Source: Mustelus asterias (lineage: Eukaryota). From it: DNA of 64,000 bases. The position numbers were made by a program, and so were the translations under genes. Below, piece by piece: positions 4,651 to 63,050 of this stretch. The notes below the pieces were generated by a model, which was not told where the DNA came from, searched no databases, and saw only the letters and a list, made by a program, of their open reading frames with translations. Each line of letters opens with the position of its first letter. Within the stretch, counting starts at the first letter, position 1. The stretch spans positions 52,948,001 through 53,012,000 of the forward strand of contig NC_135822.1 in NCBI RefSeq assembly GCF_964213995.1, in the 5' to 3' direction.

Positions 4651-4651
4651 T

Positions 4652-37369: not shown

Positions 37370-37648
37370 GAATATTCGCATCTTACGGGGATTAGTCGCC
37401 TTCCATGCTATCGATTGCAGCAGGGAAGTCTGCACGCTGAAGAACGCTGGTTATCGGCATATGTTCTGGTACAGACAACGACCAAATCGGGAATTAAACG
37501 CTCTTTTCTATCAGGCTGGAGCAAGGGCTGTCAACAATCATACCTCTGAGTCGTTTGGGGCTCTCAGAACCAGCAGCACCCTGTTCAGTATCGAAGTGAG
37601 AGATGGCGTAGCCTCTCACATTGCTATCGATTTCAGCCCTTATACTAT
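37370..37648 (+). pseudogene. TCR V pseudogene 1 (beta-type likely)
   Basis: ttttacctggcag acceptor; GIFASYGD*SPSMLSIAAGKSA, frameshift, CTLKNAGYRHMFWYRQRPNRELNALFYQ..FSIEV..HIAIDFSPYT (YxC decayed to DFS); followed by a 23-RSS. Confidence 0.85.
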
Positions 37649-37687
37649 CACAGCGCTTGAGAAGGTTGATCCACAGCAACGAAAGCC
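37649..37687 (+). promoter_or_regulatory. 23-bp-spacer recombination signal sequence
   Basis: CACAGCG + 23 nt + ACGAAAGCC (1 and 2 mismatches to consensus). Confidence 0.85.
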
Positions 37688-37709
37688 TGCACCCAGGATT
37701 CATTTTCCA

Positions 37710-37723
37710 CCGCCAAGTGGCAG
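37710..37723 (+). promoter_or_regulatory. CTCF-like motif just downstream of the RSS
   Basis: CCGCCAAGTGGCAG resembles the CTCF core CCASYAGRKGGCRS. Confidence 0.45.
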
Positions 37724-38441
37724 AATTCGATAGTTTTTTGGAGTTGAATCTGATCGCGTGGCTGAGCCGGCAATTTCAATGAACTTTTCAGTAAGTTCTT
37801 ATCTCCTGCCTTTGCCCATTAGCCCTGAGAGATACCTCTTTCAAGAATCGAGCCAGTTTCTTTATTGGTAAAATTGGTTCACCACTGGGATACTGCATTC
37901 CACAACCTCAGACATAGTGACATTAAAAAAAACTCACCATATCCCAGCTGATCCTTAAATCTGTGTACTCTGTTGACCGAGTATTTTGTCACTGGAAGCA
38001 ATTTGTCCATAATTGCACTCACAAAATCCTCAATATTATTAAAGGATTCTCATAAATCTCCCGGTAAATTCTGTTTCTAGGAAAACAATCCCATCTGTTT
38101 CACTCTCTCCACATTAGGGTAGACCCTCGCCTCTGATACAGTACTAATAAATCTGCTTTCCACATCCCTTAGAGCTTGACACAGTTCCAAAATGGTAGTT
38201 CCCAAAATTTGGCACAGCGCTTCAGGATAATGGTGACTTCTAATAGTTCAACATAATCTCCTGCAATTAATATATGTTTTTATTAATAAGGTAAAGTTGG
38301 ATTTCTTTGTTGTCTTCTCATTTGGTCCTTGCACTTCCAAAGATAGATACGTCAACAGGTCCCTCTTGCACTGAATCTCCCCGTTATTCATTTGCATTGT
38401 CAGTTGATAGCATTGGACTGAATGACACTCCTTAATTTCTA

Positions 38442-38457
38442 CCACAAGATGGCAGCA
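38442..38457 (+). promoter_or_regulatory. CTCF-like motif
   Basis: CCACAAGATGGCAGCA, close to the CTCF core consensus, in unique sequence. Confidence 0.55.
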
Positions 38458-39039
38458 CAATTGGGAAACAGAGCTCTGAAAACCCACCAAACCACCCAAT
38501 CATTCAGACGGGCAATTTAGTGCGAATAATTATGGACTTGGTCGTTCTACCATGTGGACGAAGAAAGAACGACTTTAAAATGGCTTTAACAACAATAACG
38601 ACACTAAAAGCAATATTGGTTTTAAAGGGCTATTCTGGCAGAGAGTTCTGGCTGGGATTCTCGATCAAGTTATAATTAAAAACAGATGCAGGTTGTAAAG
38701 TTGCTGTGAGCCATGGCCTGGTCTGGGAACTGTGATCTGAAGCTTCCTGTGTTAACCAAATATGGGGAATTGTCTACTTTGAGTTAGACCTGTTGGCACC
38801 AAAGTTCCATGTTTGTTTGTGAACTGCATGCTGTCTGAAACAGGAGTAATTTAATTGGCTGCTCGAGCCATGCGATCCGTTTTCACTTATACCATTGACT
38901 GGGTGCCTTATTAAAGCAAATATCAAAACAGTTCTCGCTTATATTCCATGGACAGACTAGCAAAACTCACGTCAATGGAAACCAACTGAAGTCAGAGACC
39001 AACTCTTCACTTGTCCAATGCACTCGTAAAACAAAGGGA

Positions 39040-39950
39040 ATTGCTGGGGTTGTTGGAGGTCAGTCACCTCCCTCCCAGGACATCATTGCATGGGTTGCTG
39101 GGGGTATCTCACGAGGCCGAACCTTATTCATCTGCTTCATCAATATCCGTTTTTCGATCGTAAAGTGATTACAAATACACAATATTCAGCACCATTCTCA
39201 ATTACTCAAGTACTGAAGTACTTCGTTTCCAAATTCAACAAAGTTTGGACAACATTCAGGCTTGGAGTGATAAGTGACAAGTAATATTGGCACCACAAAA
39301 GTTTCAGGCTGTAACGATCGCCAAAGGGAGAACAAATAACTATCGCCCGGTCACAAATCGTGGCACTGCTCACTGAATCCGTCACGGTCATCTTTCTAGG
39401 GGTTACTATTGAAAGGAAACCGAACTCGATCAGTCATATAAATAATGTGGCAGAGGCTGGGTCTGAGACGTGAAATTCTGAGGCGGTTAACCCACTTCCT
39501 TACTCCCCAAATCCTGTTCACCATCTCAAGGGATCAATCGAAAATGTGATGGAACACCGTCAACTTCATTAGATGAGTGCAACACCAACACTATGAAGAA
39601 GCTTGACGCCATCCAGGACAATGCAGCTTCTTGATTGATAATCTGTCACATTTAACACTCAGTCCCTCCACCACTGATACACAGTGACAGCAGTGTATAC
39701 TATCTGCAGTATGCACTGCAACAACTCATCAGCAACAATCCCAACCCGCGAACCAACAAGCTAGAGAGACAAGGGCAGCAGACACATGGGAACAGCACCG
39801 GTTGAAAGTCGTCCTCCAAGCCACATAGGAACCTGACCTGGATCTATATCGCCGTTGCTGCACTTTCGTTGGATAAAATCCTGGAATACTCCCTAACTTC
39901 ACCGTAAGCGTACCTGCACCATATGTGCTGCAAGTTCAAAAAGGCAGATG
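39040..39950 (+). mobile_element. Old LINE (CR1/L2 group, different family) RT 3' remnant
   Basis: cccaggacatcattgc..atctgcttcatcaat..cttgacgccatccaggaca..ccctccaccactga; heavily decayed. Confidence 0.5.
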
Positions 39951-40857
39951 AGAATAAGCTGATGATGGGATGAGATGAAGAAAGGTAGGTGGAGGGTCAT
40001 GCGGATGAAGAGAGAATCATAGACTGCCTGCACTGTAGAAGAGGCATTCGGCTATTGAGTCTGCACAGACACCCCGACAGAGTATCCCATACCCTATCCC
40101 TGTAACCCATTTTCAAGTCTAACCGAGACATTTAGGGATACTTATTTGGCATGGCCAATCCATCTAACCTGCATATCTCTGGGCTGTTGGAGGGAACCGG
40201 AATGAACATTTATTGGAACTTTCTCCTTATGAATGCATATTTGAAAAATGTCTTTGAGAGATGTATTTTGTATTCATTCACGGGATCTGGGCTTCGTTGG
40301 CTAGACTATCATATATTGCCCATTTCAGTCCTCTTTAGACTCAAAGGTGGTGCCAGAGGGCAGGGAATATCTACCCAAGAAGCGATGAAAATATGCAAGG
40401 CACTGCCATATGAATTTGCTTGTGCTGAATAGCACATATGGATTTAAGTGGTGCTTGTCAACGATAGGACGAGATGAGGAAGAATGGGATGGGAATGATG
40501 TGAGGATAATGTATGGTCCTTTCAAGGCGTGGGGCCCGGGATCAGTGGACTGAGTGCTCTTGATACGTTCCCAATTATTCCACAATCCGTTAAATCATAT
40601 CAAAATGCATTCCAGTTTCAAACAGAGGAAGTTTAATTTCCTGACTCGGAGCCGACTTTTAAAGGGCTAAATTATACATTGTGCTGAACTCTTGGATGCT
40701 TTGCAAATTCTTCAAAAGTCACAGAGAGTCTGTTAGAGAATTTGGTGAACAGTTTTCAACAAATGTTTAAACGGTTGTCAGGTGCCAGGTGTGCAGTGAG
40801 TTTGGTATCTGAAGAGATGTGGCCATTTTGCACTCTGAATCATCCGTGACATGTTTA

Positions 40858-41279
40858 AAGAACAAAGAACAAAGAACAATACAGCACAGGAACAGGCCCT
40901 TCGGCCCTCCAAGCCCGCGCCGCTCCCCGGTCCAGGATTGAATCCTGAATCCAGGATCCCCGCCCAATTTTCAAGCCTATCTACATCCTAATATCCTATC
41001 CACCGAGCTGTCCCTCACAGCTATGATGCTTTGTTCATCACAACCTATTAACTCACCCCCACCCCCCCATTCCAGACCATGTGATCTCCAGCGAGAGGCG
41101 AAAACCCAGAGTGAAAACCCCAGGGCCAATATGGGGAAAAGAAAATCTGGGAAATTCCTCTCCGACCCCCTGTGGCGATCGAAACGAGTCCAGGAGATCA
41201 CACTGGCCCTGATCAGAAAATGCTTCCCAACCCTATTCATTTCCACTTCTGCTTTACGAACACCATATGAATTCCCTGC
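40858..41279 (-). mobile_element. Young non-coding retroelement with CR1-type 3' tail (SINE-like or long-3'UTR LINE end), copy 1
   Basis: Near-identical to 55117-55598; absent from the paralogous site near 45980; tail matches the CR1 end at 32278-32333. Confidence 0.8.
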
Positions 41280-41777
41280 TAAGGTTCGAAGATTAAACAG
41301 TTCATGTTTGGGTGGCGGGGGTTCTTCTCTTGCAGCTGTGAAAATGAGGGGAAATTTGAAATAGATTTCGGAAATCGTGAAATGGTTTGATAATGTAAAT
41401 AATGATGCACTTTGCAGAACCTGACAGGATCGCCGTTAACTATAGAGCATTGACTTGAGGTGAATAGCAACAAAAACCAGAAATGAAGCATGGAAATATC
41501 GGAGTAAATGTGGGCCATTCGGCTCTTCGAGCATGCTTTGCCATTCAACTCGTTAATGGGCGTCCTACTTCACGCCACGTTTCCCGCACTATAGCCATTT
41601 CGCATGATCAGTAGAGGAGTCGATGAGCAGTTAATCCTTTTCCACGGTCAATTGTTTCATCTGGAAATGGCACTGTCTGTAAGGACACTGACAGCAAATT
41701 CGCCCGTAAGTTTTAAAATATAATTGGAAAATGTATGAAGCGGGTATTTTTAGTGTTATTTGCAGCAGGTGAAGGAC

Positions 41778-42050
41778 GGCACGGTTGGACATTGGTTAGC
41801 ACCGCTGCGTCACAGCGCCAGGGAGACAGGCTCAATTCCTGGCTTTGGTCACTGTCTTTCTCCCCGTGTCGACGTGGGTCTCCTCCGGGTGTTTCGGTTT
41901 CCTCCCAGAGTCCGAAAGACGTGTTGGTAAGGTGCATTGGCCATGCTAAATTGTCCCTCAGTGTATCCGAACAGGCGCCGGAGTGTGGCGACTCGGTGAT
42001 AACTTGATTGCAGTGCTAATGGAAGCATACTTGTGACACTAATAAATAAA
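41778..42050 (+). mobile_element. V-SINE-type SINE
   Basis: tRNA-like head ggcacggttggac..ggttagcaccgctgcgtcacagcgccaggg, V core, aataaataaa tail. Confidence 0.75.
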
Positions 42051-42319
42051 ACAATGAAGAATATGATTTCACCAGTATGCTCTGTGAAAAGGAAAACTCT
42101 GACACTATGGACTGAATGCCCTTCTCCTGAGTTGTATCAGTTTATAATTCTATGATAATCAGAGTCAGACTTGTCTCATAACGTGCAGATATCCTAACTG
42201 AATGGCTATCGCCAAAAGTTATGCGTATTTCTAATACTGAATAATATATTACAAGTCGTAAGACAGAGGAACAGGATGACATAGAAAGACACAATCTCAT
42301 GTGAAAGAAAGCGAAACCG

Positions 42320-42620
42320 TCATAGAACCAAAGAATCTTACAGTGCAGAAGGAGACCATTGGACCAATCGATTCTGCACCGACCACAACCCCACCCAGGC
42401 CCTATCTGCACAACACCATGTATTTACCCTACCTCGTCCCGCTGACATTAAGGGCAATTTAGCACGGCTAATCCACCTAACCCGCACATCGTTGGACTGT
42501 GGGAGGAACATCGTTGGACTGTGGGAGGAAACCGGAGCACCCGGAGGAAACCCATGCAGACATGCGGAGAATGTGCAAACTCCGCACAGACAATGTGCCA
42601 GTGTGCCATCGTGCCACCAA
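42320..42620 (-). mobile_element. V-SINE-type SINE with a short internal duplication
   Basis: Reverse V core; acatcgttggactgtgggaggaa duplicated in tandem. Confidence 0.7.
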
Positions 42621-42723
42621 TCAACATTAATAAAATAAGTAAACAGGCTTTATATTATTTATTTAAATGTTGGAATGTAATGAATGGCTTTTAGGGTATA
42701 GATTGATAACAGCTATAGATAGA

Positions 42724-42905
42724 NNNNNNNNNNNNNNNNNNNNNNNNNNNNNNNNNNNNNNNNNNNNNNNNNNNNNNNNNNNNNNNNNNNNNNNNNNNNN
42801 NNNNNNNNNNNNNNNNNNNNNNNNNNNNNNNNNNNNNNNNNNNNNNNNNNNNNNNNNNNNNNNNNNNNNNNNNNNNNNNNNNNNNNNNNNNNNNNNNNNN
42901 NNNNN
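42724..42905. other. Assembly gap (N run)
   Basis: N run flanked by GATA/GGTA-type simple repeats. Confidence 1.
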
Positions 42906-42989
42906 AGGTAGGGAGTTAGGTGGGCAGCTATGTATGTAGGTAGATAGGTAGCTGGGTAGATCTCCCATTCGGTTTGAGGATCCATTTTG

Positions 42990-43028
42990 GGTTTTTGCTG
43001 AGCTCTTCCATCTCGCTGAGTCACTGTG
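42990..43028 (-). promoter_or_regulatory. 23-RSS of V pseudogene 2
   Basis: Minus strand CACAGTG + 23 nt + GCAAAAACC. Confidence 0.95.
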
Positions 43029-43316
43029 TAACTCCAGCCGCAGTAACACACGGCGGAGTAATTGGCCCACAGACTGGAGGGCTCCAGATAAAAGTGCTGG
43101 GTTTTCTAGCGGTAAAACCGTCCACCGCACCGGAGGTGGTAAGTTGTCCAGCATATGAATAGAAAATGTTCTGTGACTCACGGCCAAAATGCCATCTATA
43201 CCGGTAAAAAATACTGCGAGCATCTGCTTTTGCCTAAATGCATTCGATGCTGATTCGATTGGCCGGGGAACTGGATATGTAAGCTGGACGCTGTTGGACC
43301 AGCACGACCGCGAAAT
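43029..43316 (-). pseudogene. TRBV: TCR beta V pseudogene 2 (paralogue of the intact V)
   Basis: DFAVVLVQQRPAYISSSPANRISIECI*AKADARSIFYRYRWHFGRESQNIFYSY..DGFTARKP, ~7-nt deletion, HFYLEPSSLWANYSAVCYCGWS; stop codon, conserved W>R, frameshift, leader exon missing. Confidence 0.92.
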
Positions 43317-44904
43317 CTGTAAAGCAGAGAGAAAAAGCAATGACGTTATCATTGAGACTCTTTGAAGGGATACAAGAGCGGAGAGATAAAGTGAGAAGGG
43401 AGGCGAGAATGAGAACTAAGGCAGTGATAGATATAGAGGAAAAAAGAAGGGAGAATGAGAGGTACAAGACTACCCGAGGCAGAGAGAGATAAAACAAAAG
43501 ATAATCGATCAAGTATAAATGGGTTAGACTGGTATAAAGAGAGAGAGAGGAAACACAGGGGTGCTGAAGGAAAATCTGACGAAGGAAGGGTCAAACGAAA
43601 GAAGGAAATGAGAGAGAGAGAGGTCGTAAGAGAGAAGAACAGAGTGACATAGAGAAAACGACAAAGTGACAAAGAGATACAGAGTCAGCAAACAGAGTGA
43701 ATCCACACTTTGAAGCGGTGTGAACGAACTCGGAAAGCGGATCAAACACTAATCGGAACACACAGGGGAATAACAGTGAGCATCACTGGTAAGTGTGTTT
43801 AACTGCACGATTTCTCAAATTCAGGGCAGGGAGTGAAAATCTGTCCCCTTCAAGTTGTTCGACGGATAAGTGCAAGGGACCAAATTCTTATTGGCCTTTG
43901 GCTCCGAAATGTCATTTCCAGGGTGTAGCTAATATGTGTTCAAGATATTTAATTTTCGTTCCTTAACAGCAGCTTTTGAAGTTATTTTAAACCTGGAACA
44001 GTTAGAGTTAATCTGGATCATTCGCCAGCTTCTCAATGAGTGGTAAGCCTAATGCTGTTTATGCCCGCTCGCGTTGCAGTCACTTCCGTGTCTGGGTCTA
44101 ACTGACTGCATAGCGGATATGTTGCTGGTGTAGTGATATAAAAGAGGAGGCTAATGATCGGCGGCCATCAGTTTAGCTCCGTCTCCTGGCCGCCAATGGA
44201 ATCAAATCTGCAATAAAAAGCGGGTATCAGGATTAGTGTCAATGAAACTATCGGATTATGGTAAACTCCAACTAATTCACTGATGTCCAGAAAGCAAGCA
44301 AATCTGCCATCGGCACCCGGCCAGGCTTCCACGTGATTCCGGATACAGGCCAAGGTGGTTGACTAGCTGTCCACATGGTTTAGCCAACAAATCAGATGTG
44401 AACCAAGCAGCTCGCCACTAATTTCTCAACAGCTTTAATGATGGACAGTATGTTTTTAACATGCTGCTGACGACAGCATCCTGTGAACTTAAGCAAAGTG
44501 TTTTGCATTTTTCATTCCCCCCTCGCAACCCCCCACCCGCAACATCTGTAATTTTGGTTCTGCGCTGAGCGGCATTCTATACTGCATCGGATTGTTGTTA
44601 CTTTTTTCAACATTCTTCCGAATGGACAATGTCAACCTTTGCACTCCCAGTACGACCGAAAAGCATACGTAATCCTCAAAAAAGAAGTGAAGGGACGGTT
44701 CATTTCACAGAATCACAGTTTTTCTTCCGACTCGAGCTCAAGTCAGGGAGAAGGTAAATGTCAGTACGTTGGATCGTGGCCTGGGGTGGGCGGAACATTA
44801 GGATGGACTGGTGGCGAGTCCGAGGTTGTGGGGGCGGGGCGGGGCAGGGTGGTCAATGAGGCGGTGGGGCGTGGTCAAGTGATAGAATAATAGATTCATG
44901 CAAT

Positions 44905-45170
44905 CATAGAATCCTACAGTGCAGAAGAAAGCCATTCTGCCCATTCAAGCCTGCACCCACCACAATCCCACCCAGACGCGTATCCCGATAATCTCATGCA
45001 TTTACCCTAGCTAGTTTCCCTGACACTAAGTGGCAATTTAGCATGGCCAATTCACCGAACCTGCACATCTTTGGAGTTTGGGAGGAAACTGGAGAACCAG
45101 AAGAAACCCACGCAGGCACGGGGAGAATGCGCAAACTGCACGCAGACAGTAATCCAAACCTGGAATCGAC
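44905..45170 (-). mobile_element. V-SINE-type SINE
   Basis: Reverse V core (aatttagcatggccaatt..ctgcacatctttgga..gggagaatgcgcaaact). Confidence 0.7.
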
Positions 45171-47279
45171 AGGCAGTCGCGGAGCTGGGGGAGGGGTAGT
45201 CCGGCAGGTGGGGGTATTTGGGGAGGGGAGGTGGGTGGTGGAGTTTCAGTGGCCCAGGAGCTGAAAATAGCTTTAATGCCTGCAGCTTTTCCCAGGAAAC
45301 TATTCTGTTGAGAATCTCGGAACAATCTCACGTCTCCGGTTTATATCGGAGCATTAGATGGTTCCAGGTGCAAAGTAATTGCCCATCCGGAATTCAAAAT
45401 TTCCGGACCCTTCCCATGCAGCCGTTTCCTGGAGACTTCTTGGTGAGATGGCGTCAGAAGACTGGAAAATTGCAAACGCTGCCCAAGGAGTGGTGAGAAT
45501 AAGAAACTCATTACCTCAGGAAGTGGCTGTGCCGAATAGTATCGATGGCATTAGCGGAGAGCTGGTTAAGGTGGAAGGGAGAAAGAATTAGAGGTGTCCT
45601 TGATAGGGTGAGATGAAAAGAAATGGGAGCGGGGTGATATGAGAATAATAAATGGGTCTTTCAAAACGCTGGCCCAGGATCAATGAGCGAATTTATCTTG
45701 ATCTGTGGTCTATGATTCTATGATTCTTTAGGTCACGTTAGTGTTGTTGTCCTGCTTCAAGCAGCATTTCCCAACTGGGAACCGAGATTTAAAGGGTTAA
45801 ATTCCTCACTGTGCTGAAGACCTAAGTGCTTTGAATGTTGTTCAAATGATACAAGAGTCTGATAGGGAGGTTAACGGCTTCCACCAAATGGTTATACGAT
45901 CTTCGGGAGCCAGGTGTGCAGTGAGATTAGTATCTGCACAGATGTCGCCATTTTGCACTCTGAATCATATTTGGCATGTCTAAGGTTCTAAGGTTAACCA
46001 TTCCCTGTTTGGGTGGATTTCTTCCTCTTAGAGCAGTGAGAATAAGGGGAAATCTGTAAGAGATTTTGAAAATCATTACACGTTTTGATAACACAGATAA
46101 CGAGAAACAGTGCCAGAGCTAATATCATTGGACAGGATGGCCGTTAAGCAGCGACCATTGCTTCATATTGAATTCCAAAATAACCAGATCGGGAACATCG
46201 AAATGTATGATCAGGAGCAGGACATTCGGCCTTTCGAGCCCGCTTCCCCATCAACTTGTTTATGGTTGCTCTATTTCAACGCCATTTCCTTCCCATATCT
46301 CTTGATCAGTAGATAAATAGGGGATCAGTAGCACATCAGTTAGAGATCAGGTAAACGTTTCACCATAGCGAAATTTATCCGGTGGATTGTCACCACCTGT
46401 AAGGGCAGTGGAAGCAAATGCCATGGAAAAAATGAAAAGGTAATTGGCGAAATATACGACGCGCAATATTTGGAACAGGTCAGGAGAATATGCATTAATC
46501 AGATAGCTCTTCCATAAAGCAAACTCTGGCATTATGGACGGAATGCCCTGCTCTCGAGTGCACCAGTTCCTCGTCACGACTGCAATATCGTGAATACCTT
46601 GTGGCAAACCCCCATTTTTATTCATTCATGGAACATAGGCGTCACTGGCTAGGCCAGCATTTTTGCCCATCCCTAGTTCCCTGATGGCAGCTGAGAGTGG
46701 GCCATATTGCTGTGGCTTGGAAGTCACATGTAGTCCAGCCAAAATAAGGATGGCAGATTTCCCTCCCTAAAGGGCATTAATAAACCAGATGGGGTTTTTT
46801 CCGCCAATCGTTTCATGGTCAGTTCATTCTTAATTCCAGATTTTTTAAACTTAAATTCCGATTCCACCATCTGCCACAGTGCGAATCGAACCCGGGCCTC
46901 CAGAACATCAGCTGTGTTTTTGGATTATGAGTCGAGTGAGAGTAACATTCGGCCAGCGCCTCCCCCTACTGGACAAGCAGGCTTGGAAAATATGCAATGG
47001 CACAGTCGCGAACTATGTCTAATTGATTGTTCTATATCTCTGGTCCTTCTTTCAATCATATAACTAATCAATTTAGCCCACCTCGAAAACTGTTTGTAAA
47101 ATGACAGAAATTCATAATTGAATTGTAAAAATTAATACCGTTTGTATAATATGAAGTAAAAGAGGTGGTGATTCAACGTTAGCAAAAAAAAAGGATTTAT
47201 ATTACATATGTAAATATTGAAAGTTGATGAATGCCGAGAGATGGGTAAATAAAGATGTTGACAGCTCAGCAATTTATGA

Positions 47280-47463
47280 NNNNNNNNNNNNNNNNNNNNN
47301 NNNNNNNNNNNNNNNNNNNNNNNNNNNNNNNNNNNNNNNNNNNNNNNNNNNNNNNNNNNNNNNNNNNNNNNNNNNNNNNNNNNNNNNNNNNNNNNNNNNN
47401 NNNNNNNNNNNNNNNNNNNNNNNNNNNNNNNNNNNNNNNNNNNNNNNNNNNNNNNNNNNNNNN
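47280..47463. other. Assembly gap (N run)
   Basis: N run 24 bp beyond the RSS nonamer of the intact V. Confidence 1.
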
Positions 47464-47487
47464 TATGCACTTTGCAGATGCACTTCG

Positions 47488-47526
47488 GGTTTTTGTCGAA
47501 CACATCTACCTTTATGAGCCACTGTG
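47488..47526 (-). promoter_or_regulatory. Consensus 23-RSS of the intact V
   Basis: Minus strand CACAGTG + 23 nt + ACAAAAACC, perfect heptamer and nonamer. Confidence 0.98.
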
Positions 47527-47822
47527 TAAACTCCAGGCGCAGTAATACATGCCTGAGTGATACACACGCAGGCTTGAAGACTCCAGGTTAAAATGCGTGT
47601 TGCCCGCTTTTCTGGCGCTGAAACCGTCCACCTCCCCTTTGGGAATGATCTCCGTGCCATAGGAGTAGAAAAGGTTCTGAGGATCACGATCAGGGTGCCA
47701 TCGATACCAATAGAAAGCGGAGGCAGCTGTTGCTTTTACGTAAACACATTCGATACTGACTGCAGTGCCCGGGGAGCTGGATATGTAAGCTGGAATCTGT
47801 TGGACCAGGACTGCCGCCACAT
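47527..47822 (-). CDS. TRBV: Intact T-cell receptor beta V exon
   Basis: ttttgcag acceptor; DVAAVLVQQIPAYISSSPGTAVSIECVYVKATAASAFYWYRWHPDRDPQNLFYSYGTEIIPKGEVDGFSARKAGNTHFNLESSSLRVYHSGMYYCAWSL; both Cys and the core Trp present; LFYS and CAWS motifs as in TRBV30-like segments. Confidence 0.93.
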
Positions 47823-48356
47823 CTGCAAAACAGAGAGAAAATATGGTGATATTAACCTTGACACCCTTTAAGGGTATACAAGCATGGAGAGCGAAAGAGA
47901 GCGAAAGCAAGAATGAGAGCCGGAGAGTATGGCAATGATATAGTGATAGAGAAAGGGACTAAAACAGGCAATGAGTGAGAGGGGAGAATGAGAGAAATAA
48001 AGACAAATAGAGAGAGAGGGGCAAGAACAGATTAAACCAAGCACAATCGATAGGGCATGAAGGGATTGAATGACATAGGGAGGAAGAGAGGAAACACACA
48101 GAGCCTCTGAGAGACAAGCGGACGAAAGTCGGGTCAACTAGAGAAATAGATCAGGAAAGCGATCGAAAGAGAGAAACAGAGTGGCAGGGAAAGAAAAACA
48201 GAGTGACAAACAAGGGCTGCAGCAACAAAGAAAGACAGAGGGCACCTATACCTTCAAGCTGTGTGAAGAAGCGTGGAACGAAGATTAAACCCTAATCGGG
48301 ACATGCAGGACAAAAACAGTGAACATCACTGACAACTCAGGCCAGTTCCACCTTAC

Positions 48357-48399
48357 CCGGTAACAGCAGCAACAGAGCCCAGAGCCGAGACTCATACAT
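48357..48399 (-). CDS. TRBV: Leader exon of the intact V: MYESRLWALLLLLP
   Basis: ATG, hydrophobic core, G|gtaagg phase-1 donor in frame with the V exon (G+AT = Asp). Confidence 0.9.
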
Positions 48400-49265: not shown

Positions 49266-49439
49266 GGTAATCCAATCCGTTGGCAAGCACCAATTTCCCA
49301 AGGACTATTAAAGGACGATAATTGCTAGTGATGCTAGCTCTCCATGAATGAGTTAAATTATTTTTTTTCCCATCTCATTCTGCCTGTTTCTCTTTCTAAC
49401 CTGAGTCACAGGCTCTACGTCGTCTGTTTGCTGTTGGTT

Positions 49440-51033: not shown

Positions 51034-54000
51034 CTTTCATAATGGAGAAGGCCCACGTTTTCAGACAAGGGGCTACAGAGAAGCGTGCGTTGTCTTCTGA
51101 AGAGGATAAATGGAGGGGAGGGTTATTTCAGGCTTCCACTGATGAGTAGGTTCAACAATTCGGAGAGTCTGGAGAATTCTTTGCGGAGGGGGAGAGACAG
51201 GCTAACGTTAGATTCAGGAAAGGTTCAGCAGTTGCCAATCAGATTGTACGGTGCGCGGGGAAATCCTCTTTCCATTTCGACACATTAGAACGAATCTATT
51301 GAAGTTATTTACAACATCGTTTCTCAGTTGAATTCTTGGAGAATATGGGGAATATATGTCAATTGCGGAGATTCGAAAAACGTTTTCACAAAAAATGCAG
51401 GGATTGCAAATACGTTCACTCTTAAATCCGGGTTATTTGTGTTGATGGTGTGTCAGATGCTGCTTTCTTTATTTTCTTTATTTCTCCCGCGCCCATTTCT
51501 CTTTTTGTCCCTTGCACCCGCCTCCTCTCTTATTTCCCCTCCTCTTTCTGCTTCTCTTCATCACTCCCTATATCCTGCTTTCGAAAGAATTCTGTTACTC
51601 TGTTGCAAACGTTGAGATGCTAGGGACAGTGAACCGAGCAGTCAGATTGCAGTTTTGGTCGGACCTAAATCATTACATTATGTTGGACGTTTACAATGAA
51701 TATTTCCAAAGTCCAATGTCTTGGAAATCACTAACGCAAGGTGGTAGGAGTACAGATAGCATAATGGAATGATAAAATGTGACAGAATAGAGGGAGGCCA
51801 TTCAGCCCATTGTATCTGCACCGGTATCCAAAAGAGCTACCCAGTTAGTTCAATTCTCCAGCCCTATCTCTGTATCCCTTCTAAATTCATCACTTTAAAA
51901 TTGGTATCCAGCTCTCTTTTGAAATGGCCAATGGAATTTGCTTCCACCACACTCAGCTTACTCCAAATCCCAAAAGCTCTGAGTAAGAAGCTTCTCTTTA
52001 TCTCACCTCTGGCTCTCTTGCTGAACGTGTTGACATACTGACCCCTTAGGCATTGACATACGAAATAGTAGAAGCAGAATATCCTTCCTTGCACTGTCAA
52101 AATTGTGCATAATTTTGAACATCTCAATAAGGGAATCGCATAACTTTGTCTTATCCATGGAGAATAAGCCCAATTTCTGAAATCTTAACTTGCATCTACA
52201 GATCCCCATTACCTGTCGAAATAGGGAGAATGTCTGGTGAAAAGTTTAATAAAACACTGGTTAGATTCTGCCTGAGGTGTTGTATTATGTTCTGGCTCTG
52301 TGCCCCAAATTCTCTCCTATCCACTGCAAAATCCCTGCTTTACGACACCATCCCCAATACTCTGTCTCTATTCTCCCCTTTCTTCTCCCTTTCATTGTCA
52401 TGCTTCTTCCTGCTTTCCATTCCCGCCTTTTCATCTTTTCCTTCTCTCCTGTTATTCACACTTTACCAGTTATCTCCCATCAGCGCTCATGCTCCACTCT
52501 TTCTACAACCCGTCCATCTATATTCTATTTCCCAATTAGCTCATCTTTGCTCCACAACCCACACCACAGTAACTGTCCCCTCCTTGCTGAATCTCCCCTC
52601 TCCTACTCCTGTTTCTCTATTTCCTTCTAATCTCTCCTTCCTCTCAGTGTCAGTGCTGTTTCCTATCCTCCTGTTCTTTTCTCTGCCCACAAACAACATT
52701 AATCTTAGGGAAGGGTTGGTGAATCAGTGATGTCAGGCTCCACGTTCGCATCCAACAAGGAACCAATCGGTGCATTGTCGAAAAATGTTTCAGGACTGCA
52801 TCAGAAGCCACGAAGTAGCTGAGGCCAATAGAGTTGCATGGTCTGTGGGACAATGTAACTTCAATATGATACAAGGAGCATTCCTGGACAGCACGGGGTT
52901 GCAGCTGAGTGTATTTGCCTTTCAGAAAGTGAGGGAGGAACTAAACGGGATAATGAGGAAGTAATCGGAAGTTGTTATCAAATACTAGGTTGCCTTCTGG
53001 AGGAAAATCGAAATAACCTTAAAGAGTTATTAAAATCACATGGAAATATCTCTGGGAACAAAGTAGGAAGTAGTAAAATAATTGTGCATGTTACATCGAA
53101 TCTGGAAGCCATTCGGCCCTTCGAGCCTGCTCCGCCATTCATCTTGATCACGGCTGATCATTGAAATCAATATCCTGATCCCCCTTCCTCTCGTACCCCT
53201 TGATCGTTTCAACTCCAAGACCTTAATCTAATTTCTTCGAGAAAATCAGACAACGTTTTGGCCTCAACTACATTCTGTGGTAATGAATTTCACACATTCA
53301 CCACTCTCCGGGTGAAGAAATTTCTCCTCACCTCAGTTCTTAAAGTTTTGCTCCTCATCCTCAAACTATGCATGTTGCATGTTGCTGATGTAGAAAATGC
53401 TGTTCCAATTGAGCAATATCCGTATAGACTTAATCACTGAAGTTAAAGTTTAGTTATTTATTAGTCACAAAGAAGGCTTACCTGAACACTGCAATGAAAT
53501 TACTGTGAAATTCAGGTTCGGAAGGAAAAGCTGATGTTTGTTTAGTCTGAGATGCAGCAGCCAAAATTCTTGATCACACAAAGGAAGGCTGGTGGATACT
53601 TACAAATCTCAAATAATGAATGCAGGAATGGGGGTAGATGATTACAATGTAAGATTGGTGAAGGTGGAAATGGAGATCCAGTTACCAGATAATGATTTGA
53701 ATAAGGAAAATGAGCTGGTTTGATGGCAGTTGCAAGAAAAAGTTCACTGATTTGGTGTATGTTCCTGAGTTGTTGAAATTAACAGATGTCAACTTCCAAT
53801 ATTGTCAAAAACAGCCCATCGTCTATGAGAAATTGTAAATCAATCAGGAGTATTGTGTGATCTCAAGATGGAGATTGAGGCGCAAAAATATTTCACTACT
53901 ACAGATAAAAGGAAGGGACAGCAACGTGAAGTAAGTCTGTTTGATGAAACAATATTATCATTCCAAATGATCGACTAGGAAAATGAATCCATACAGTTTG

Positions 54001-55116
54001 CATAAACGTGAATATCCAAAGAAACAGCATTTCTGATGTTCGAGTACACTACGATGGTTTTTGTAACAGCAAAACTGTCACAGTGATCACTGAAGCCAGC
54101 ATTACAACATATCCTGATACTAAAGAAGTCAATCTGCTGTATATCTTTGACAAAGAACATGTAGAAATAATGGCAAAGAGGCAAAACGAGCAAAGGAATT
54201 GATAATCTATCGTGCAACAGAAAGATATAGCATTGGAGACGCTGGAATGACTTTTGCGCGTGTCAGTTTATAACAGAAGCTGGGGATGGACTGTCTGAGA
54301 GTGGAAATGAGGCAAGTTAACAAGAAAGGGGAAAGAGAGGTGTTACGTTCCTGGAAGGCCCTTAACCAGCCTGTGAAGTCGAGAAGACATGCAAAGAGAC
54401 AGTTTCTTTTTGACGAAATCTGTGAGCAGCTCAGCCTTCTGAAAATGATTCCTTTATTTTGACATTTTGAGAACTGTTGGAAATTGAAATGCAAATCCGG
54501 TGTGGTTTGTGCCAGTTTGCATTTAATGTAAGGTTTCATCCTCCTGATCTTACCGAGTTCTCTGAGCATGTTACCGATATTATTTTTCAATAATGAGAAC
54601 AATATTTAACATGGATGTGGAGTTAAAGCAGGATCAAGGACTAAAGGAGACTTCGTAAAGAAAGAGGACGTAGCTCAACGACAACAGTGTGTTGAGAAAA
54701 GCAAGACAGGAGAACATGATTGCCGATACTTGACATGACTTTGATGAGAGAATGGTATGAAGCGGATGTTGGATCCCATCTTTGAGAACTAACAGCCAAC
54801 TACTCAAAGAGGAGTACCTCGCCTCATAATTCGTTAAAAGTGTGTGAGAGGTGGTATGATCTGCTCTTTAGCAACTCCTTTGTGGTAAAATCAAAAATAA
54901 CTACCTGAAACTCTATCTTTAAAGTCAACAAGTAACTATCTATCTAACTAACAGTGAACAGGTTAACAAAACTATTAATAAATCAGTTAAAATACTATTC
55001 TAATGAAATGTTGCTGAGATAAATACGATTCCCAATTCTTAACAAAAAAAATACAATTTTTAGTCAAAATCAAAATTTCAACTAGGTTTGTTTTCTTCTG
55101 GAATCTTCTGTCTTCA

Positions 55117-55598
55117 AGAACAACAAAGAACAAAGAATAATACAGCACAGGAACAGGCCCTTCGGCCCTCCAAGCCCGCGCCGCTCCCCGGTCCAGGATT
55201 GAATCCTGAATCCAGGATCCCCGCCCAATTTTCCAGCCTATCTACATACTCATATCCTATCCACCGAGCTGTCCCTCACAGCTACGATGCTTTGTTCATC
55301 ACAACCTATTAGCTCACCCCCACCCCCCCCCCCCCCCCATTCCAGACCATGTGATCTCCAGGGAGAGGCGAAAACCCAGAGTGAAAACCCCAGGGCCAAT
55401 ATGGGGGAAAAAAATCTGGGAAATTCCTCTCCGACCCCCTGAGGCGATCGAAACGAGTCCAGGAGATCACACTGGCCCTGATCGGAAAATGCTTCCCAAC
55501 CCTATTCATTTCCACTTCCACGAACACCATATGAATTCCCTGCCCCCGAGATAGGTTCCCAACTATCCGCAGTCTCGCTCTGTACTGGCACCAGCAAG
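55117..55598 (-). mobile_element. Young non-coding retroelement with CR1-type tail, copy 2 (longer)
   Basis: Near-identical to 40858-41279 with about 55 bp more 5' sequence; 5' boundary uncertain. Confidence 0.78.
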
Positions 55599-56884
55599 TT
55601 GATTCTTTCTTTTTTCTTCTGTCTGGAATCTCTACCTTCTTTTGATACTTCTGCTATTCAGGTGAGCCTTTTAGCGAAAGATAAATATAGCTGCAGACAT
55701 TGGTCAGCAACTAAAAGCCCTTGTAGAGAGAGGAGAGGGCTCTTTTGTTCTTTAGTTTTGCTAAAAGTTAGAGCAGTTGCAGATAGACAGCTGTATATGG
55801 AGGTATCTCGCACAGTTCTGCTCGGCAAAAACGTACAGCAGACAATGACAGAAAGCTACAGATAAATACACACACAGACATAGAGAGAGAGTGCGAGAGA
55901 GAGGGATTTACAAGGAAGCTGATTCCCATTGGTTCAACGAGAAAGGGGCCATGACCAATTCTGAACAACATCCTAATGCTCTTCATGCTTTCCTCGTGAA
56001 TTCAACCGAGTGGCCTGGTTCCTCACGAGATTCCAAGTTTTTCTTCTCTCTCCATTCATTCTCCACTGTAACACATCGCGGTCATTCTGATGAATTTGCG
56101 ATCCAAACTCTCTAAGGCAAATAAATTGCAGTACTCAGAAGTGAAGCAATTATTCCAGGTGGGGCGTGACCAATGCGCTAAACAAGTGATGCAAAATGTC
56201 TGCCCTTCTGTATTTCAGTCTCTTTTGAAATATTTAATTCGTCGTACCGACTCCTGTATGGACCTCTCTGTTGGCTGGAGGTGACTTGTTTCGCTGGAGA
56301 GTAAACCATTTCCTTCAACCATTGTTCCTAGCTTTTCACTGTTTGTAAAATAATCTGCTTCATCTTTCTTAGGTGCACCTAAGAACAAGCTTTAAATTTC
56401 ACTTCATCGCTGATGAAAAGGCGCCTCGGATGCATGTTTAGCTCAGGTGACTGGACATTCGAGCTGGATTAGATTTGTCTCAAAAAGATCAGTGGATTCC
56501 AAAGTTCCCTATTTGATCTACCCCTGCGAGACATGGTGGCGCTGTGGTTCAGTTCAGTCTTCAGCAGAGAACTGAGCTAGTTGCCACGCAAACAATTTGA
56601 GCTCACCACCTGGATAATTTAATCTTAAATGGGAGTCTGGGTTATAAACAGAAAATGCTCAGCAATTGAAGAAGCATCAGTGAAGATCAATAAAACTTAA
56701 GGTTCAAGATTGTGACTGTCATCAGAACGGTTGTATTTTCGAAGTGCAATATTTACAAAGGAGCAGAGAGTCGAGAAACGGGGAGGGAGGTAAAGAACCA
56801 ACGAGAAGATCAGTGCCAGACTGGAAGGCAACATAGGTTCAAATATGTGATGGATAAAGGAACAAGGGTGTAGAAGCTATTGAT

Positions 56885-57345
56885 CACGTTGTTGCCTGGT
56901 TTAGAGGATATGGACTATGAAGAAAGGTTGAACAAATTTGGATAGTTTTCACTGAAGCTTCGGAGGATGAGGGGGCACCTAACGGAAGTTGGCAAGATTA
57001 TGACAGGCTTGGATGGAGTGGATAGTCAGAGTTTTTTCCCAGGGTCGAAGCTTCAATTACTCGGGGCATAGGTTGAAAGTGAGAGGGGAAAAGTGTAAAA
57101 GTGATGCCAGGGACAAGATTTTCACACAGAGAGTGATGAATGCCTGGAACACAGTGTCAAAGGAAGTCGTGCAAGCAGATTCTATAAAACCGTTCAAAAG
57201 CCATTTGGATGGACACATGAATAGGCAACGTTTAGAGGGATATCGACAACTCTGAGGCAAGAAAACATAAGATTAGATAAGCATTTGTGTCGGCACAGCC
57301 TTTGTGGGCCGAAGGGCTTGTTCCTGAGCTGTTCTGATCGTTGTT
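56885..57345 (+). mobile_element. CR1 3' fragment
   Basis: GHRLKVRG..FTQRVMNAWN motif and ggccgaagggc tail. Confidence 0.75.
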
Positions 57346-57369
57346 CTAAGGCTACAGCCGTTTAAAATG

Positions 57370-57655
57370 GTTCAAATAAATTGAATAAAGATGGGCCAAG
57401 ACGAGGTGTAAATGAAAGCAACAAATTAGATCCCAAGCGTTTTGATCCAAAACGAATGTGAGTACCGTTTCTGATGTGAAATTGTGAAATTAGATGAGAG
57501 TCCGTAAGACTGTAAAGTGTCCAAATGGAAATGGGATTCTCTTCCGTAAGTTGCCGTTCAGTTCCATTGTAACTGTTGAGGCGGCCCATGTGAGATAGGC
57601 GAGATGGTCTTTGCGACTGATAATTGAATGCACCCAGGCTGGAATCGCAGCCTGT
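57370..57655 (-). pseudogene. Possible highly decayed V relic
   Basis: ctacag acceptor, then SQRPSRL..(30 aa)..ENPISIW..RFGSKRLGSNLLLSFTPRLGPS with V-like spacing; no recognisable Cys pair or RSS. Confidence 0.25.
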
Positions 57656-58084
57656 AGCCCGAATGAAAATGTTCAATAAACAGGCCACTCAAAATTTGTT
57701 TGGTTTGTCCATGGTAGCGGAGACCGCACAGTGAACTGCACAGATAGCAGACGGACGAGACAGCAATAAAATAAATTTACAGCAACGAGTGTTTTGGGTA
57801 CTGCTTGGTGAGAAGGAGCCGCAAGGAGTTTAATCAATTGCATCCACCTCTAAACTGACACATAAGTCGTTTCTCCGCAGCAGCAATTGATTTTTCAGAA
57901 ATTAGCGGTGTTAACGACATAGAAACATAGTTCCTCTTCCATTGAATTATATATCCGTAGGTATTCATACTGATTGAGCGGGATCTCTGGTGTTGCAAAG
58001 GATATTTGCACTCTACAACAATGGGGGTTTTCAATCAAGGGCGTGTTCTTCAGTTTTCTTGATCATCAATAATGGATATACGAT

Positions 58085-60817
58085 CGAACAAGAGGCAAGA
58101 ATTAGGGGGCATAAGAATGGGAACAGAAACTGTCAGGGAAAGGCACGAATGAAAAGTGGAACTTTTTCAAGGAACAAATACTGGGTGTCCTTGACAGGTA
58201 TGTCCCTGTCAGGCAGGGAGGAAATGGCCGAGTGAGGGAACCATGGTTCACGAAAGAGGTGGAATGTCCTGTGAAAAGGAAGAGGGAAGCTTATGTAAGG
58301 ATGAGGAAACGAGGTTCAGATGGCTCGATTGAGAGTTACAAGTTAGCAAGGAAGAGCTGAAAAAGGGGCTTAGGAGAGCTAGGAGGGGACATGAGACTTG
58401 GCGGGTCGGATCAAGGAAAACCCCAAGACTTTTTACTCTTATGTGAGGAATAAAAGAATGACCAGGGTGAGGTTAGGGCCGGTCAAGGACAGTAGTGGGA
58501 ACTTGTGCATGGAGTCAGTAGAGATAGGCGAGGTGATGAATGAATACTTTTCTTCAGTGTTCACCAAGACGAGGGGCCATGTTTTTCAGGAAGAGAAGGT
58601 GTTACAGGCTAATAGGTTGGAGGAAGTAGATGTTCGGAGGGAGGATGTAAAGGCAGTTTTGAATGAACTGAAGGTCGATAAGTCCCCTGGGCCTGATGAA
58701 ATATATCCTAGGATTCTTTGGGAGGCAAGGGATGAGATTGCAGAGCCTTTGGCTTTGATCTTTGGATCCTCACTGTCCACGGGGATGGTGCCAGAGGACT
58801 GGAGAGTGGCGAATGTTGTTCCTCTGTTTAAGAAAGGGAATAGAAATGACCCTGATAATTATAGACCGGTTAGTCTTACTTCGGTGTTTGGTAAATTGAT
58901 GGAAAAGGTCCTTAGGGATGGGATTTACGACCATTTAGAAAGATGCGGACTAATTTGGGATAGTCAGCACGGATTCGTGAAGGGCAAGTCGTGCATCACA
59001 AATTTGATTGAATTTTTTGAGGAGGTAACTAAGTGTGTTGATGAAGGTAGGGCAGCTGATGCCATATACATGGATTTTAGTAAGGCGTTTGGTAAGGTCC
59101 CCCATGGTCGGCTTATGATGAAAGTAAGGAGGTGTGGGATAGAGGGAAAGTTGGCCGATTGGATAGGTAACTGGCTATCTGATCGAAGACAGAGGGTGGT
59201 GGTGGATGGCAAATTTTCGGACTGGAGGCAGGTTGCTAGCGGAGTGCCACAGGGATCAGTGATTGGTCCTGTGCTCTTTGTGATTTTTATTAATGACTTA
59301 GAGGAGGGGGCTGAAGGGTGGATCAGTAAATTTGCTGATGACACCAAGATTGGTGGAGAAGTGGATGAGGTGGAGGGCTGTTGTAGGCTGCAAAGAGACA
59401 TAGATAGGATGCAAAGCTGGGCTGAAAAATGGCAAATGGAGTTTAACCCTGATAAATGTGAGGTGATTCATTTTGGTAGGACTAATTTAAATGTGGATTA
59501 CAGGGTCAAAGGTCGGGTTCTGAAGACTGTGGAGGAACAGAGAGATCTTGGGGTCCATATCCACTGATCTCTAAAGGTTGCCACTCAAGTGGATAGATCT
59601 GTGAAGAAGTGTGTTAGCTTTTATTAACAGGGGTTTGGAGTTTAAGAGCCGTGGGGTTATGCTGCAACTGTACAGGACCTTGGTGAGACCACATTTGGAA
59701 TATTGTGTGCAGTTCTGGTCACCTCACTATAAGAAGGATGTGGAAGCGTTGGAAAGAGTGCAGAGGGGATTTACCAGGCTGCTGCCTGGTTTGGAGGGTA
59801 GGTCTTATGAGGAAAGGTTGAGGGAGCGAGGGCTGTTCTCTCTGGAGCGGTGGAGGCTGAGGGGAGACTTAATAGAGGTTTATAAAATGATGAAGGGGAT
59901 AGATAGAGTGAACGTTCAAAGACTATTTCCTCGGGTGGATGGAGCTATTACAAGGGGGCATAACTATAGGGTTCATGGTGGGAGATATAGGAAGGATATC
60001 AGAGGTAGGTTCTTTACGCAGAGAGTGGTTGGGGTGTGGAATGGACTGCCTGCAGTGATGTACTTCTGAGGCTTTATAAAGCACTGGTTAGGCCCCATTT
60101 GGAGTACTGTGAGCAATTTTGGGCCCCACACCTCAGGAAGGACATACTGGCACTGGAGCGGGTCCAGCGGAGATTCACACGGATGATCCCAGGAATGGTA
60201 GGCCTGACATACGATGAACGTCTGAGGATCGTGGGATTATATTCATTGGAGTTTAGGAGGTTGAGGGGAGGTCTGATAGAAACTTACAAGATAATGAACG
60301 GCTTAGATAGGATGGACGTAGGGAAGTTGTTTCCATTAACAGGGGAGACTAGGACGCGGGGGCACAGCCTTAGAATAAAAGGGAGTCACTTTAGAACAGA
60401 GATGAGGAGAAATTTCTTCAGCCAGAGAGTGGTGGGTCTGTGGAATTCATTGCCACAGAGGGCTGTGGAGGCCGAGACGTTGAGCGTCTTCAAGACAGAA
60501 ATTGATAAATTCTTGATTTCTCGAGGAATTAAGGGCTATGGGGAGAGAGCGGGTAAATGGAGTTGAAATCAACCATGATTGAATGGTGGAGTGGACTCGA
60601 TGGGCCGAATGGCCTTACTTCCGCTCCTATGTCTTATGGTCTTATGGTCTTATAGTGGAGTCAGACACTTTAGGAACATTTAAGCGGTTATTGGATAGGC
60701 ACATGGAGCACACCAGGATGTTAGGGAGTGGGACAGCTTGATCTTGGTTTCAGATAAAGCTCGGCACAACATCGTGGGCCGAAGGGCCTGTTCTGTGCTG
60801 TACTGTTCTATGTTCTA
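58085..60817 (+). mobile_element. 5'-truncated CR1 (RT) containing a nested second CR1 3' end at ~60060-60651
   Basis: ORFs 58398..59567 and 59611..60069; host broken at gcagtgat|..|atagtggag by ORF 60036..60566 with its own (cttatggt) tail. Confidence 0.92.
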
Positions 60818-61074
60818 ACAACTGAGTGTCACCGTGTGCCCCAAATATTATTGCACCTTCTGCCTCTCGTTGCCGAACATTTGACCTGATTTAGCATTTA
60901 GTGACCTGTGGTTAACTGGGAACCTATATGTGTCGAATTCGGAATCCAGGTGTTGTTATCTGGAATCCAGAGGTGGATAATTGTACTTCTGATCAGCAAA
61001 GAAAACATGAGCAGTAGAAATTATGCGGAATTTTATGTTGGTCATTAGAAATATATTGACAATATATACTCTGA

Positions 61075-61885
61075 TTCAATCAGTGGGCTGATGATTGGCA
61101 GATGGAGTTTACATTAGACAAATGTGAGGTGATGCATTTCGGCAGATTGAACCAGGGCACGACTTATTCAGTTAATGGTAGGACGTTGGAGAGTGAAGAG
61201 ACGCCTTGAAAGTGGAGTCACAGGTGGACAGAGTGGTGAAGAAGGCATTTGACATGCTTGGTTTCATCGGTCAGAACAATGAATACAGGATTTGGGACGC
61301 CTTGTTTAAGTTGTACAAGATATTGGTAAGGCCGCACTTGGAATATTGTGTGTAGTTCTGGTCACCCTATTATAGAAAGAATATTATTAAAATAGAAAGA
61401 ATGCAGAAAAGATTTACTAGGATGCTGCCGGGACTTGATGGTTTCGGTTATAAGGAGAGGCTGGATAGTCTAGGACGTTTTTCTCTGGAGCGTAGGAGGC
61501 TGAGGGGTGATCTTATAGTGGTCTATAAAATAATGAGGGGCACAAATCAGCTGGATAATCAATATATTTTCCCAAAAGTAGGGGAGTCTAAAACTCGAGG
61601 GCAGAGGTTTAAGGTGAGATGAGAGAAATACAAAAGTGTCCAGAGGGGGCAATGTTTTCACACAGAGGGTGGCGAATGTCTGGAACAAGCTGCCAGAGGT
61701 AGGAGTTGAGGCGGGTACCATCTTTTAAAAAGCGTTTTGGACAGTTACATGGGTAAGATGGGTATAGAGGGATATGAGCTAAATGCGGGCAATTGGGATT
61801 AGCTTAGGGTTTTAAAAAAGGGTGGCATGGACAAGTTGGGCGGCAGGGCCTGTTTCCATGCTGTAAACCTCTATGACTCTATGAC
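61075..61885 (+). mobile_element. CR1 3' fragment, same subfamily as 20118-25333
   Basis: ORF 61401..61622; (ctctatga) tail. Confidence 0.85.
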
Positions 61886-62208
61886 TCGATCGAGGGAATG
61901 GAGGAGTTCGACACTGCATCATGTTTCCGTCCTTTATCGCTTTCCTCAATTGCTTCAGAAAATCGAGCTTCCCCCCACCCAACTCCCCCCTCCCCACCCC
62001 CACCGCCACCACGCCACCACCCCCGAAAATGTCATGGCCGTACCCTTTTTTAAACGTGGGACTTCGAGTCTGTTACTGGGTCTGATAATTCTGTTTCTCC
62101 TTAAAGATTTTCAAAACAAAATATATTGTCATTCGTAATTTTGCTTTACTCACACGTTTCCCGAAAGTCTCATGCTACTGACATCTCCTCTCCAAACTTA
62201 TTTTCCGG

Positions 62209-62489
62209 ATCTTAACAGGAAGATTATCCACCAGTATCCAAATTTTCCGGGGAGAAAATGGGACTGAAGGGCGTTTTGAAGGGTTCCAGTACCATTGATA
62301 CGTACTGGCACAGCAAATGCCCTGGGGATCGGCTGCAGTTTGTGTTTTCCTCGACGGGCACCAGTAACAAAAATGTAGGGTAACGGTAAAATGTCTCATG
62401 GCCGAGAGACACGTGGCTCGGAGTTTTATCTCGAGTCCGCCCGCCCACGGGCAGGTCATTTCGCAGGGTAATACTCCACCTGGGTTCTT
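62209..62489 (+). pseudogene. TCR beta-type V pseudogene 4
   Basis: Mutated acceptor (ttttccgg); DLNRKIIHQYP, KGSSTIDTYWHSKCPGDRLQFVFSSTGT, EFYLESARPRAGHFAG*YSTWVL (cf. FNLESSSLRVYHSGMYYCAWSL); candidate leader SLLLGLIILFLLK at ~62067-62106 without a GT donor. Confidence 0.78.
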
Positions 62490-62528
62490 CACGGTGACTC
62501 AGAGACGGAGAAGTTCACGAAGAAAACG
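62490..62528 (+). promoter_or_regulatory. Degenerate 23-RSS of V pseudogene 4
   Basis: CACGGTG + 23 nt + AAGAAAACG; spacer begins ACTCAG like the RSS at 42990-43028. Confidence 0.7.
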
Positions 62529-62774
62529 AAATGTGGCAGCAAACAGTTTTGAATGATTAAACATGGCGGTAATTCAACATTTATTTTGAATAGGCGGATC
62601 GTGCTTCTGGAAATACGAAGAGACGGGGTAGAATAAATGTTATTTATTCGAGAATGATTCACCGGAAAGGTGCAAATAATTCCTTCATTCCTTTTCTGGA
62701 TATTTTTTTCTATCCGATAAAAAAAATAAGGTGGCAGCAAACGAATATGTTGTAACTTTCAGAAAATAATGTCA

Positions 62775-63050
62775 GGATTTTTACACTGACACAGCATAGG
62801 GCGCTCTCTGACTATGCTACACAGAAGTTCCCGGAATTAGGGAGTCAGGAACAACAATATTTTTCATCCTCTTATAAAGCAACAGCGATTCAACACCTTG
62901 ATCTTGTTTCAGGAGAACATCAGTCAGAAATCGAGAAACTGTTCGTAGAAGAAGGATGGTGGCACCTATTCTCGTGAGCCTGCCGGTAGCAAGAAGAAGA
63001 GCAGACTGACCTCTTCGAATCTGACACGTTCCGGGCCAATTAGTCCCTCG
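62775..63050 (-). pseudogene. Possible decayed V relic
   Basis: Across frameshifts: TCQIRRGQS, CYRQAHEN (W>C), PPSFFYE, NSGNFCVA*S, then CAGAGAG..TAAAAATCC RSS-like remnant. Confidence 0.35.

Follow-up and report, generated by a model that had tools for sequence, protein, structure and literature searches.

The window analyzed here is a stretch of 64,000 nucleotides of the Mustelus asterias contig NC_135822.1 (C22:52,948,001-53,012,000), and it carries T-cell receptor (TCR) beta variable (V) segments in both orientations. Because diversity (D-beta), joining (J), and constant (C-beta) segments are linked to it, this array is the 5' part of a complete TCR-beta (TRB) locus and not an orphon cluster. 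We further put at about 0.75 the probability that the C22 locus is an inter-chromosomal segmental duplicate of a TRB locus on contig C24 and that it is transcribed and likely still rearranged, mostly by inversion. The other TRB-bearing contigs are labeled C69 and C73. When the genome was searched with V and with C, 150 candidates were scored per search, so the numbers of loci and segments given below are lower bounds. A V was counted as intact when it had an open frame, a splice acceptor, and a recombination signal sequence (RSS; with a 12- or 23-bp spacer, 12-RSS or 23-RSS).

An earlier note on this DNA had taken the array to be of the TCR-beta type and had proposed that its D-J-C be sought on the scaffold. 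As the note had also stated, no D, J, or C was found within the 64-kb window. This absence, and the fact that the similarity of a V set alone is not chain-specific, would suit V segments that belong to another chain or form an orphon cluster. Either case now has a negligible probability, since D-beta, seven J segments, and an intact four-exon C-beta were located 45 to 63 kb past the window end; the same linkage bears out the TCR-beta identity of the array and refutes the orphon case that the note had set out. The D at C22:53,056,765 has a G-rich TRBD core with 12- and 23-RSS on its flanks, and this core matches the TRBD quoted in the part of PMC11754216 consulted. Seven J segments are open and one is broken; the seven contain the FGxG motif, a 5' 12-RSS, and a splice donor, and their RSSs have four to six mismatches to the consensus, the same as on C24. 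The C-beta exons extend from 53,068,937 to about 53,075,310, with AG/GT ends and no stops, and encode a C1 domain, a cysteine hinge, a transmembrane (TM) segment with a lysine, and a short tail. The locus thus comprises V with leader and 23-RSS, D, J, and a four-exon C-beta. Pairing of the chain with TCR-alpha and CD3 on T cells is putative.

The identity of C exon 1 is 68% to a catshark TCR-beta-like protein, 61% to horn shark T-cell receptor proteins, and 68% to a white shark model that is named kappa-like and has the same J-C structure. The TM motif is common to the C22 C-beta and the catshark, white shark, and horn shark proteins, and in the tree the C22 and C24 C-betas group with the catshark C-beta (support, 96/88). 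A PDB search with the C domains did not settle the chain, as multi-domain immunoglobulin (Ig) chains swamp it.

In total, 29 V segments were found on C22 (27 by tblastn and 2 broken ones by RSS). They lie on both sides of D, including V segments beyond C on the opposite strand. Seven are intact, and six of these seven are inverted relative to D-J-C: one same-strand V lies at 53,012,077, the V at window position 47527 is inverted upstream, and five are located downstream of C. The two broken ones recognized via their 23-RSS (C22:53,136,386 and 53,154,865) belong to a further family.

A blastn chain places C22 and C24 in collinearity from C22:52,984,091 (window position 36,091; C24:52,597,283) to about C22:53,184,000. 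In low-copy alignments totaling 54.8 kb, the weighted identity is 81.3%, and synonymous divergence (dS) is ~0.22. Among 40 candidates scored, C24 is the sole other copy of the low-copy DNA of the C region. The C24 locus has a D, eight J segments, a C-beta with 79% amino acid identity to that of C22, and 53 V segments, of which 31 are intact (23 of 39 within the shared segment). Each of the two copies is without pieces that the other has retained, and each has separate repeat insertions.

The same gene order in the two copies would also be seen if they were haplotypes of a single locus, misassembled onto two chromosomes, and antigen-receptor haplotypes can indeed be divergent. This explanation is very improbable in view of the separate repeat insertions and of the extent of the difference, about 19% in low-copy DNA versus 8 of 604 positions between the window V region and the DNA run X2. 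In addition, sequencing run X1, which has another organism label (a relative), holds both a J3 identical to that of C22 and a J3 with five differences from it, about as a C24 copy would give. The presence of both J3 forms in X1 also suggests that the duplication is older than the split of the X1 organism and this shark.

Both copies are located on chromosome-scale contigs at similar coordinates, as homeologues of a whole-genome or whole-chromosome duplication might be. However, RAG2 has one match in the genome, and three Eph-receptor hits fall on C22 as opposed to zero on C24, both of which speak against a doubled genome. Nor are the flanks collinear: outside the segment, no collinearity was detected in 136 kb to the left or in about 128 kb to the right. 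We therefore consider homeologues highly unlikely, and the origin of the C22/C24 pair was probably a segmental translocation. The duplicate would have landed on another chromosome, where V segments would then have been lost to stops, deletions, and inserted repeats. No mechanism could be recognized at the breakpoint: the left edge has no RSS join and lies about 400 bp from the closest RSS on C24. Flanking-gene synteny failed to indicate the ancestral site; the fetched flanks are repeat-dense, and none of the Eph-receptor or copper-monooxygenase hits is close to any of the three TRB loci.

Some other elements were observed at or near these loci. The right end of the segment (C22:53,183,125-53,184,071) contains an inverted, truncated, repeat-split copy of the C24 V 52,828,117, with 84% to 88% identity. 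Elements that look like endogenous retroviruses, labeled by appearance, are present at C22:53,248,000-53,255,300, with long gag-, pol-, and env-like frames, and likewise at C69:30,395,000-30,406,000 and 30,769,000-30,775,000. Left of the duplication breakpoint, purine-rich tandem-repeat arrays with a unit of about 23 bp occupy window positions 4,065-9,870 and 33,100-33,600.

The window itself was searched with a nucleotide profile (nhmmer) derived from those V exons in the fetched loci that have open frames, and it has the following features (window positions):

36091..64000, plus strand: left part of the ~200-kb C22/C24 duplicated segment, left breakpoint at about 36,091
37370..37687, plus strand: TRBV pseudogene of a family other than the TRBV30-like one, without the second cysteine; 23-RSS at 37649-37687
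42990..43316, minus strand: TRBV pseudogene of the TRBV30-like clade with a stop codon, a frameshift, and an alignment gap over the leader region; 23-RSS at 43028-42990
47488..48399, minus strand: intact TRBV gene, inverted relative to D-J-C; leader 48399-48357, V exon 47822-47527, 23-RSS 47526-47488
50781..50941, minus strand: TRBV relic, truncated at about 50785 by a LINE-type (long interspersed nuclear element) repeat; no RSS
62212..62528, plus strand: frameshifted TRBV pseudogene of the TRBV30-like clade; degenerate 23-RSS at 62490-62528

The profile gave exactly five matches, 37370(+), 43029(-), 47527(-), 50782(-), and 62209(+), with E values of 2e-12, 4e-48, 5e-70, 2e-10, and 2e-20, respectively. 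Seven V segments had been claimed, and these five, with 47527(-) as the single intact one, are confirmed. The two other claimed relics, 57370(-) and 62775(-), gave no V match by blastn, nhmmer, tblastn, or protein hidden Markov model and have no RSS; the sole homology near 57370 is a dispersed repeat. The 23-bp spacers read in the earlier note were found after 37370, 43029, 47527, and, in degenerate form, 62209, whereas 50782 has no RSS. The 47527 V has a GT/AG intron, Cys23, Trp41, Cys104, and a perfect 23-RSS, and D lies 61 kb downstream of it. A homologue search with this V returned none at an E value of ≤0.001 among nine candidates, a weak blank.

Four of the five window V segments have positional orthologues on C24, with order and strand conserved. 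The orthologue of 43029 (C24:52,625,154) is intact, and those of 37370 and 50782 are broken like their C22 counterparts; 62209 sits in a block of ~23 kb that has no positional counterpart on C24. Since the four orthologues keep order and strand, the mixed polarity already existed before the duplication. It was probably inherited from the ancestral locus and does not reflect a local or recent inversion of the window array. Of the two explanations offered earlier for the mixed polarity, the need for inversional joining stands and local inversion of the array does not.

Under the 12/23 rule, a V that lies upstream of D on the opposite strand is joined to it through inversion. Taken with the orientation of the segments, the rule predicts that D joins J by deletion and that the same-strand intact V at C22:53,012,077 would reach D by deletion also. 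For the 47527 V, an inversion of about 61 kb would be needed, and inversion would likewise join the five intact V segments downstream of C, as it does mammalian TRBV30. RAG-mediated inversion would thus be the joining route for most of the intact C22 V segments. Such arrangements have precedents: V segments in both orientations are tabulated for the bamboo shark TRB in supplementary file 16 of PMC10322711, and inverted TRBV clusters are described in the consulted parts of PMC11754216 (tuatara) and PMC12698447 (newt).

The resemblance to TRBV30 that the earlier note had read in the segments applies to 43029, 47527, 50782, and 62209 and not to 37370, which is matched best by a different V-beta family on C69. 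In a 54-row tree with few columns and many open forks, 29 of the 39 open C22 and C24 V segments fall into one clade (96/98) that includes 47527 and six of the seven C22 V segments, and the C22 V segments mostly pair with C24 partners. When 12 clade members were combined into a profile, its top-ranked PDB chains with a single V domain were 5xov_J and 3hg1_E, the latter from Mel5; a control V from C69 retrieved mouse V-beta 8.2 chains instead. We take 5xov to use TRBV30. Mel5 is described as a TRBV30 chain in the section of PMC5887915 consulted. This ranking by similarity supports a resemblance of the clade to TRBV30, with orthology putative. The TRBV30-like members in the window lie 5' of D on both strands and not in the inverted position 3' of C, where other members of the clade do lie. 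The large size of the clade suggests that sharks already had the TRBV30-like V lineage, which mammals represent by a single inverted gene.

Evidence for constraint and use of the C22 locus came from substitution ratios and from sequencing runs. In the six intact C22/C24 V pairs, dS was 0.227 and nonsynonymous divergence (dN) was 0.088 (dN/dS, 0.39; Fisher p, 2e-9), and the ratio was 0.38 for 47527 and its orthologue, whereas the five pairs with a dead C22 member gave 0.80. Judged from these ratios, the intact V pairs are under purifying selection. For C exon 1 and the TM exon the ratios were 0.54 and 0.28 (joint p, 0.024), and in the tree the C22 C-beta branch was 0.06, versus 0.19 for C24.

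Five sequencing runs hold the C region, none of them annotated as RNA; the V comparison used four runs and the D-J comparison three, and run X5 contributed no contig to either. Run X4, which has the same organism label as the DNA holders, contains a 154-nucleotide (nt) contig identical to the 47527 exon and a J3 spliced to a C22-type C start (28 nt, with four sites that differ from C24). It also contains a V-junction-J contig of depth 27 that is spliced to a C24-type C. In the region L123:772-2932, unspliced D-J1 contigs were observed in X4 as well, along with a J1 that is spliced to a cryptic intronic exon (L123:2864-2932), which in turn splices to C-beta; both suggest germline transcription. 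Run X1 yielded a 221-nt contig that joins V, junction, J3, and C-beta; the frame is kept across the junction (2+20+2 = 24 nt), with no stop. This contig came up in both the V and the D-J comparison, at an identical length and depth and with coordinates that complement each other. Its V has 5 differences from 47527 in 100 positions, with at least 8 of 12 diagnostic sites of the C22 type, its 20-nt junction holds the D core, and its J3 has no differences from that of C22 in 45 positions. For the 47527 V, for which the earlier note had proposed a check of repertoire reads, there is an exon contig in X4 and a rearranged orthologue in X1, and the C22 copy is probably somatically rearranged in this species.

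Several points weigh against continued use of the C22 locus. No V-D-J junction of C22 was seen in X4; its C22 contigs have a depth of 3 to 4 and are compatible with germline transcripts, although contig depth is a poor measure of expression. The C22 side of the X4 splice contigs covers only 28 nt of C, below the 31-nt bridging mark, and the library type of X1 and X4 is not on record. The rearranged 47527-type join in X1 is one contig with a depth of 2.98 under the other organism label, the orientation of its V in that organism is assumed, and its C start, 30 nt with two differences from C22 and three from C24, cannot tell the two apart. The pairwise dN/dS of C22 and C24 averages over both branches, and the pseudogene-pair control was a simpler count in which two of the five C24 partners have poor RSSs. 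Finally, 22 of the 29 C22 V segments are not intact, versus 16 of 39 in the corresponding C24 segment. A dying duplicate that gives germline transcripts and few or no productive chains would account for such V loss and for the broken J, as well as for X4 contigs that lack a V-D-J junction, show cryptic exon splicing, and are shallower than the C24 contig. We nevertheless regard this as unlikely, since the four C exons, the D, and seven J segments are all open after a dS of ~0.22, the intact V pairs have about half the dN/dS of the dead ones, and the contig of the relative is a productive C22-type join. Our preferred reading thus remains a duplicate that is transcribed and likely still rearranged.

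A third TRB locus is present on C69 (30,419,900-30,573,000). It has 15 same-strand V segments (8 intact), a D, and at least seven J-like segments; C exon 1 and the last exon were found, and the TM exon was not found by the pattern used. Its C-beta is 55% identical to that of C22. Tail to tail with this locus, on the minus strand of C69:30,597,300-30,666,000, lies a mini V-D-J-C unit with one intact V, a D with 12- and 23-RSS, one J, and a C with the TM lysine. The C of this unit is only 36% to 45% identical to other shark C-betas, and in the tree it stands beside three unnamed proteins resembling bony-vertebrate C-beta (89/92, long branches); it may represent an old second C-beta lineage. No homologue of this C was found at the same E value limit among 83 candidates, again a weak blank. 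A copy of the mini unit with 97% to 99% identity and a broken V is located on the 7.8-Mb contig C73 (7,062,000-7,150,000) and may be a haplotig, a recent duplicate, or a sex-linked copy.

The nearest known arrangement is the TRB of the bamboo shark Chiloscyllium punctatum, which likewise has V segments in both orientations, many of them 3' of C and inverted, and one D and seven J segments per unit. There, however, two back-to-back D-J-C units share one scaffold, whereas here D-J-C is found on three chromosome-scale contigs, two of which form a segmental pair; since the bamboo shark table gives no sequences, the comparison is by organization alone. In horn shark (Heterodontus francisci), five predicted C-beta proteins with near-identical C suggest more than one locus; they lie on contigs of 1 to 2 Mb, with four different lengths among them, and could be recent copies or haplotigs, whereas the C-betas compared here are 79%, 50% to 55%, and 36% to 41% identical among loci. 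Several TCR-beta loci have reportedly been seen in horn shark before. Cartilaginous-fish TCR loci are described as mammal-like translocons and Ig loci as multi-cluster in the consulted part of PMC6795676. In the literature within reach, which largely excluded subscription journals, we found no shark for which unlinked TRB loci have been described.

Outside sharks, salmonids also have several TRB V-D-J-C loci on different chromosomes and the same locus-exclusion problem, but the available part of PMC10464911 attributes those sets to whole-genome duplication, whereas the pair described here is segmental (single RAG2, non-collinear flanks). Sterlet Cb1/Cb2 is another case of several TRB loci on different scaffolds or chromosomes. 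In squamates, TRB was duplicated to another site as TRE; according to the consulted sections of PMC11754216, TRE is a small and much older derivative, whereas the copy here is still a conventional TRB, with a C-beta that is 79% identical. The same source describes the amniote clade of 3'-inverted TRBV segments to which TRBV30 belongs; a similar and largely inverted V clade exists here, but as the majority (29 of 39), on both strands and on both sides of D-J-C. In the newt Pleurodeles waltl, TRA was duplicated en bloc and inverted TRBV segments are used, while TRB is single, as far as the consulted part of PMC12698447 goes. A V array of mixed orientation is, by itself, ordinary for TRB; what stands out is the duplicated, multi-chromosome TRB system to which it belongs.

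We consider it an even call whether this lineage has at least three unlinked working TRB loci (C22, C24, and C69) and a divergent mini V-D-J-C unit, which arose through segmental duplication and translocation rather than a doubling of the genome, with TRBV30-like V segments dominant in the sister loci and inversion as the main joining route. The C22/C24 pair records the decay of a duplicated antigen-receptor locus at a dS of ~0.22, in which V segments die and D-J-C is constrained. With unlinked TRB loci that have distinguishable C regions, exclusion, the relative usage of the loci, and deletional versus inversional joining become testable in a shark. If this organization is true, it would provide a natural test of one-receptor-per-cell exclusion across six or more beta alleles, comparable to that offered by the shark Ig heavy-chain (IgH) miniloci, but in a TCR.

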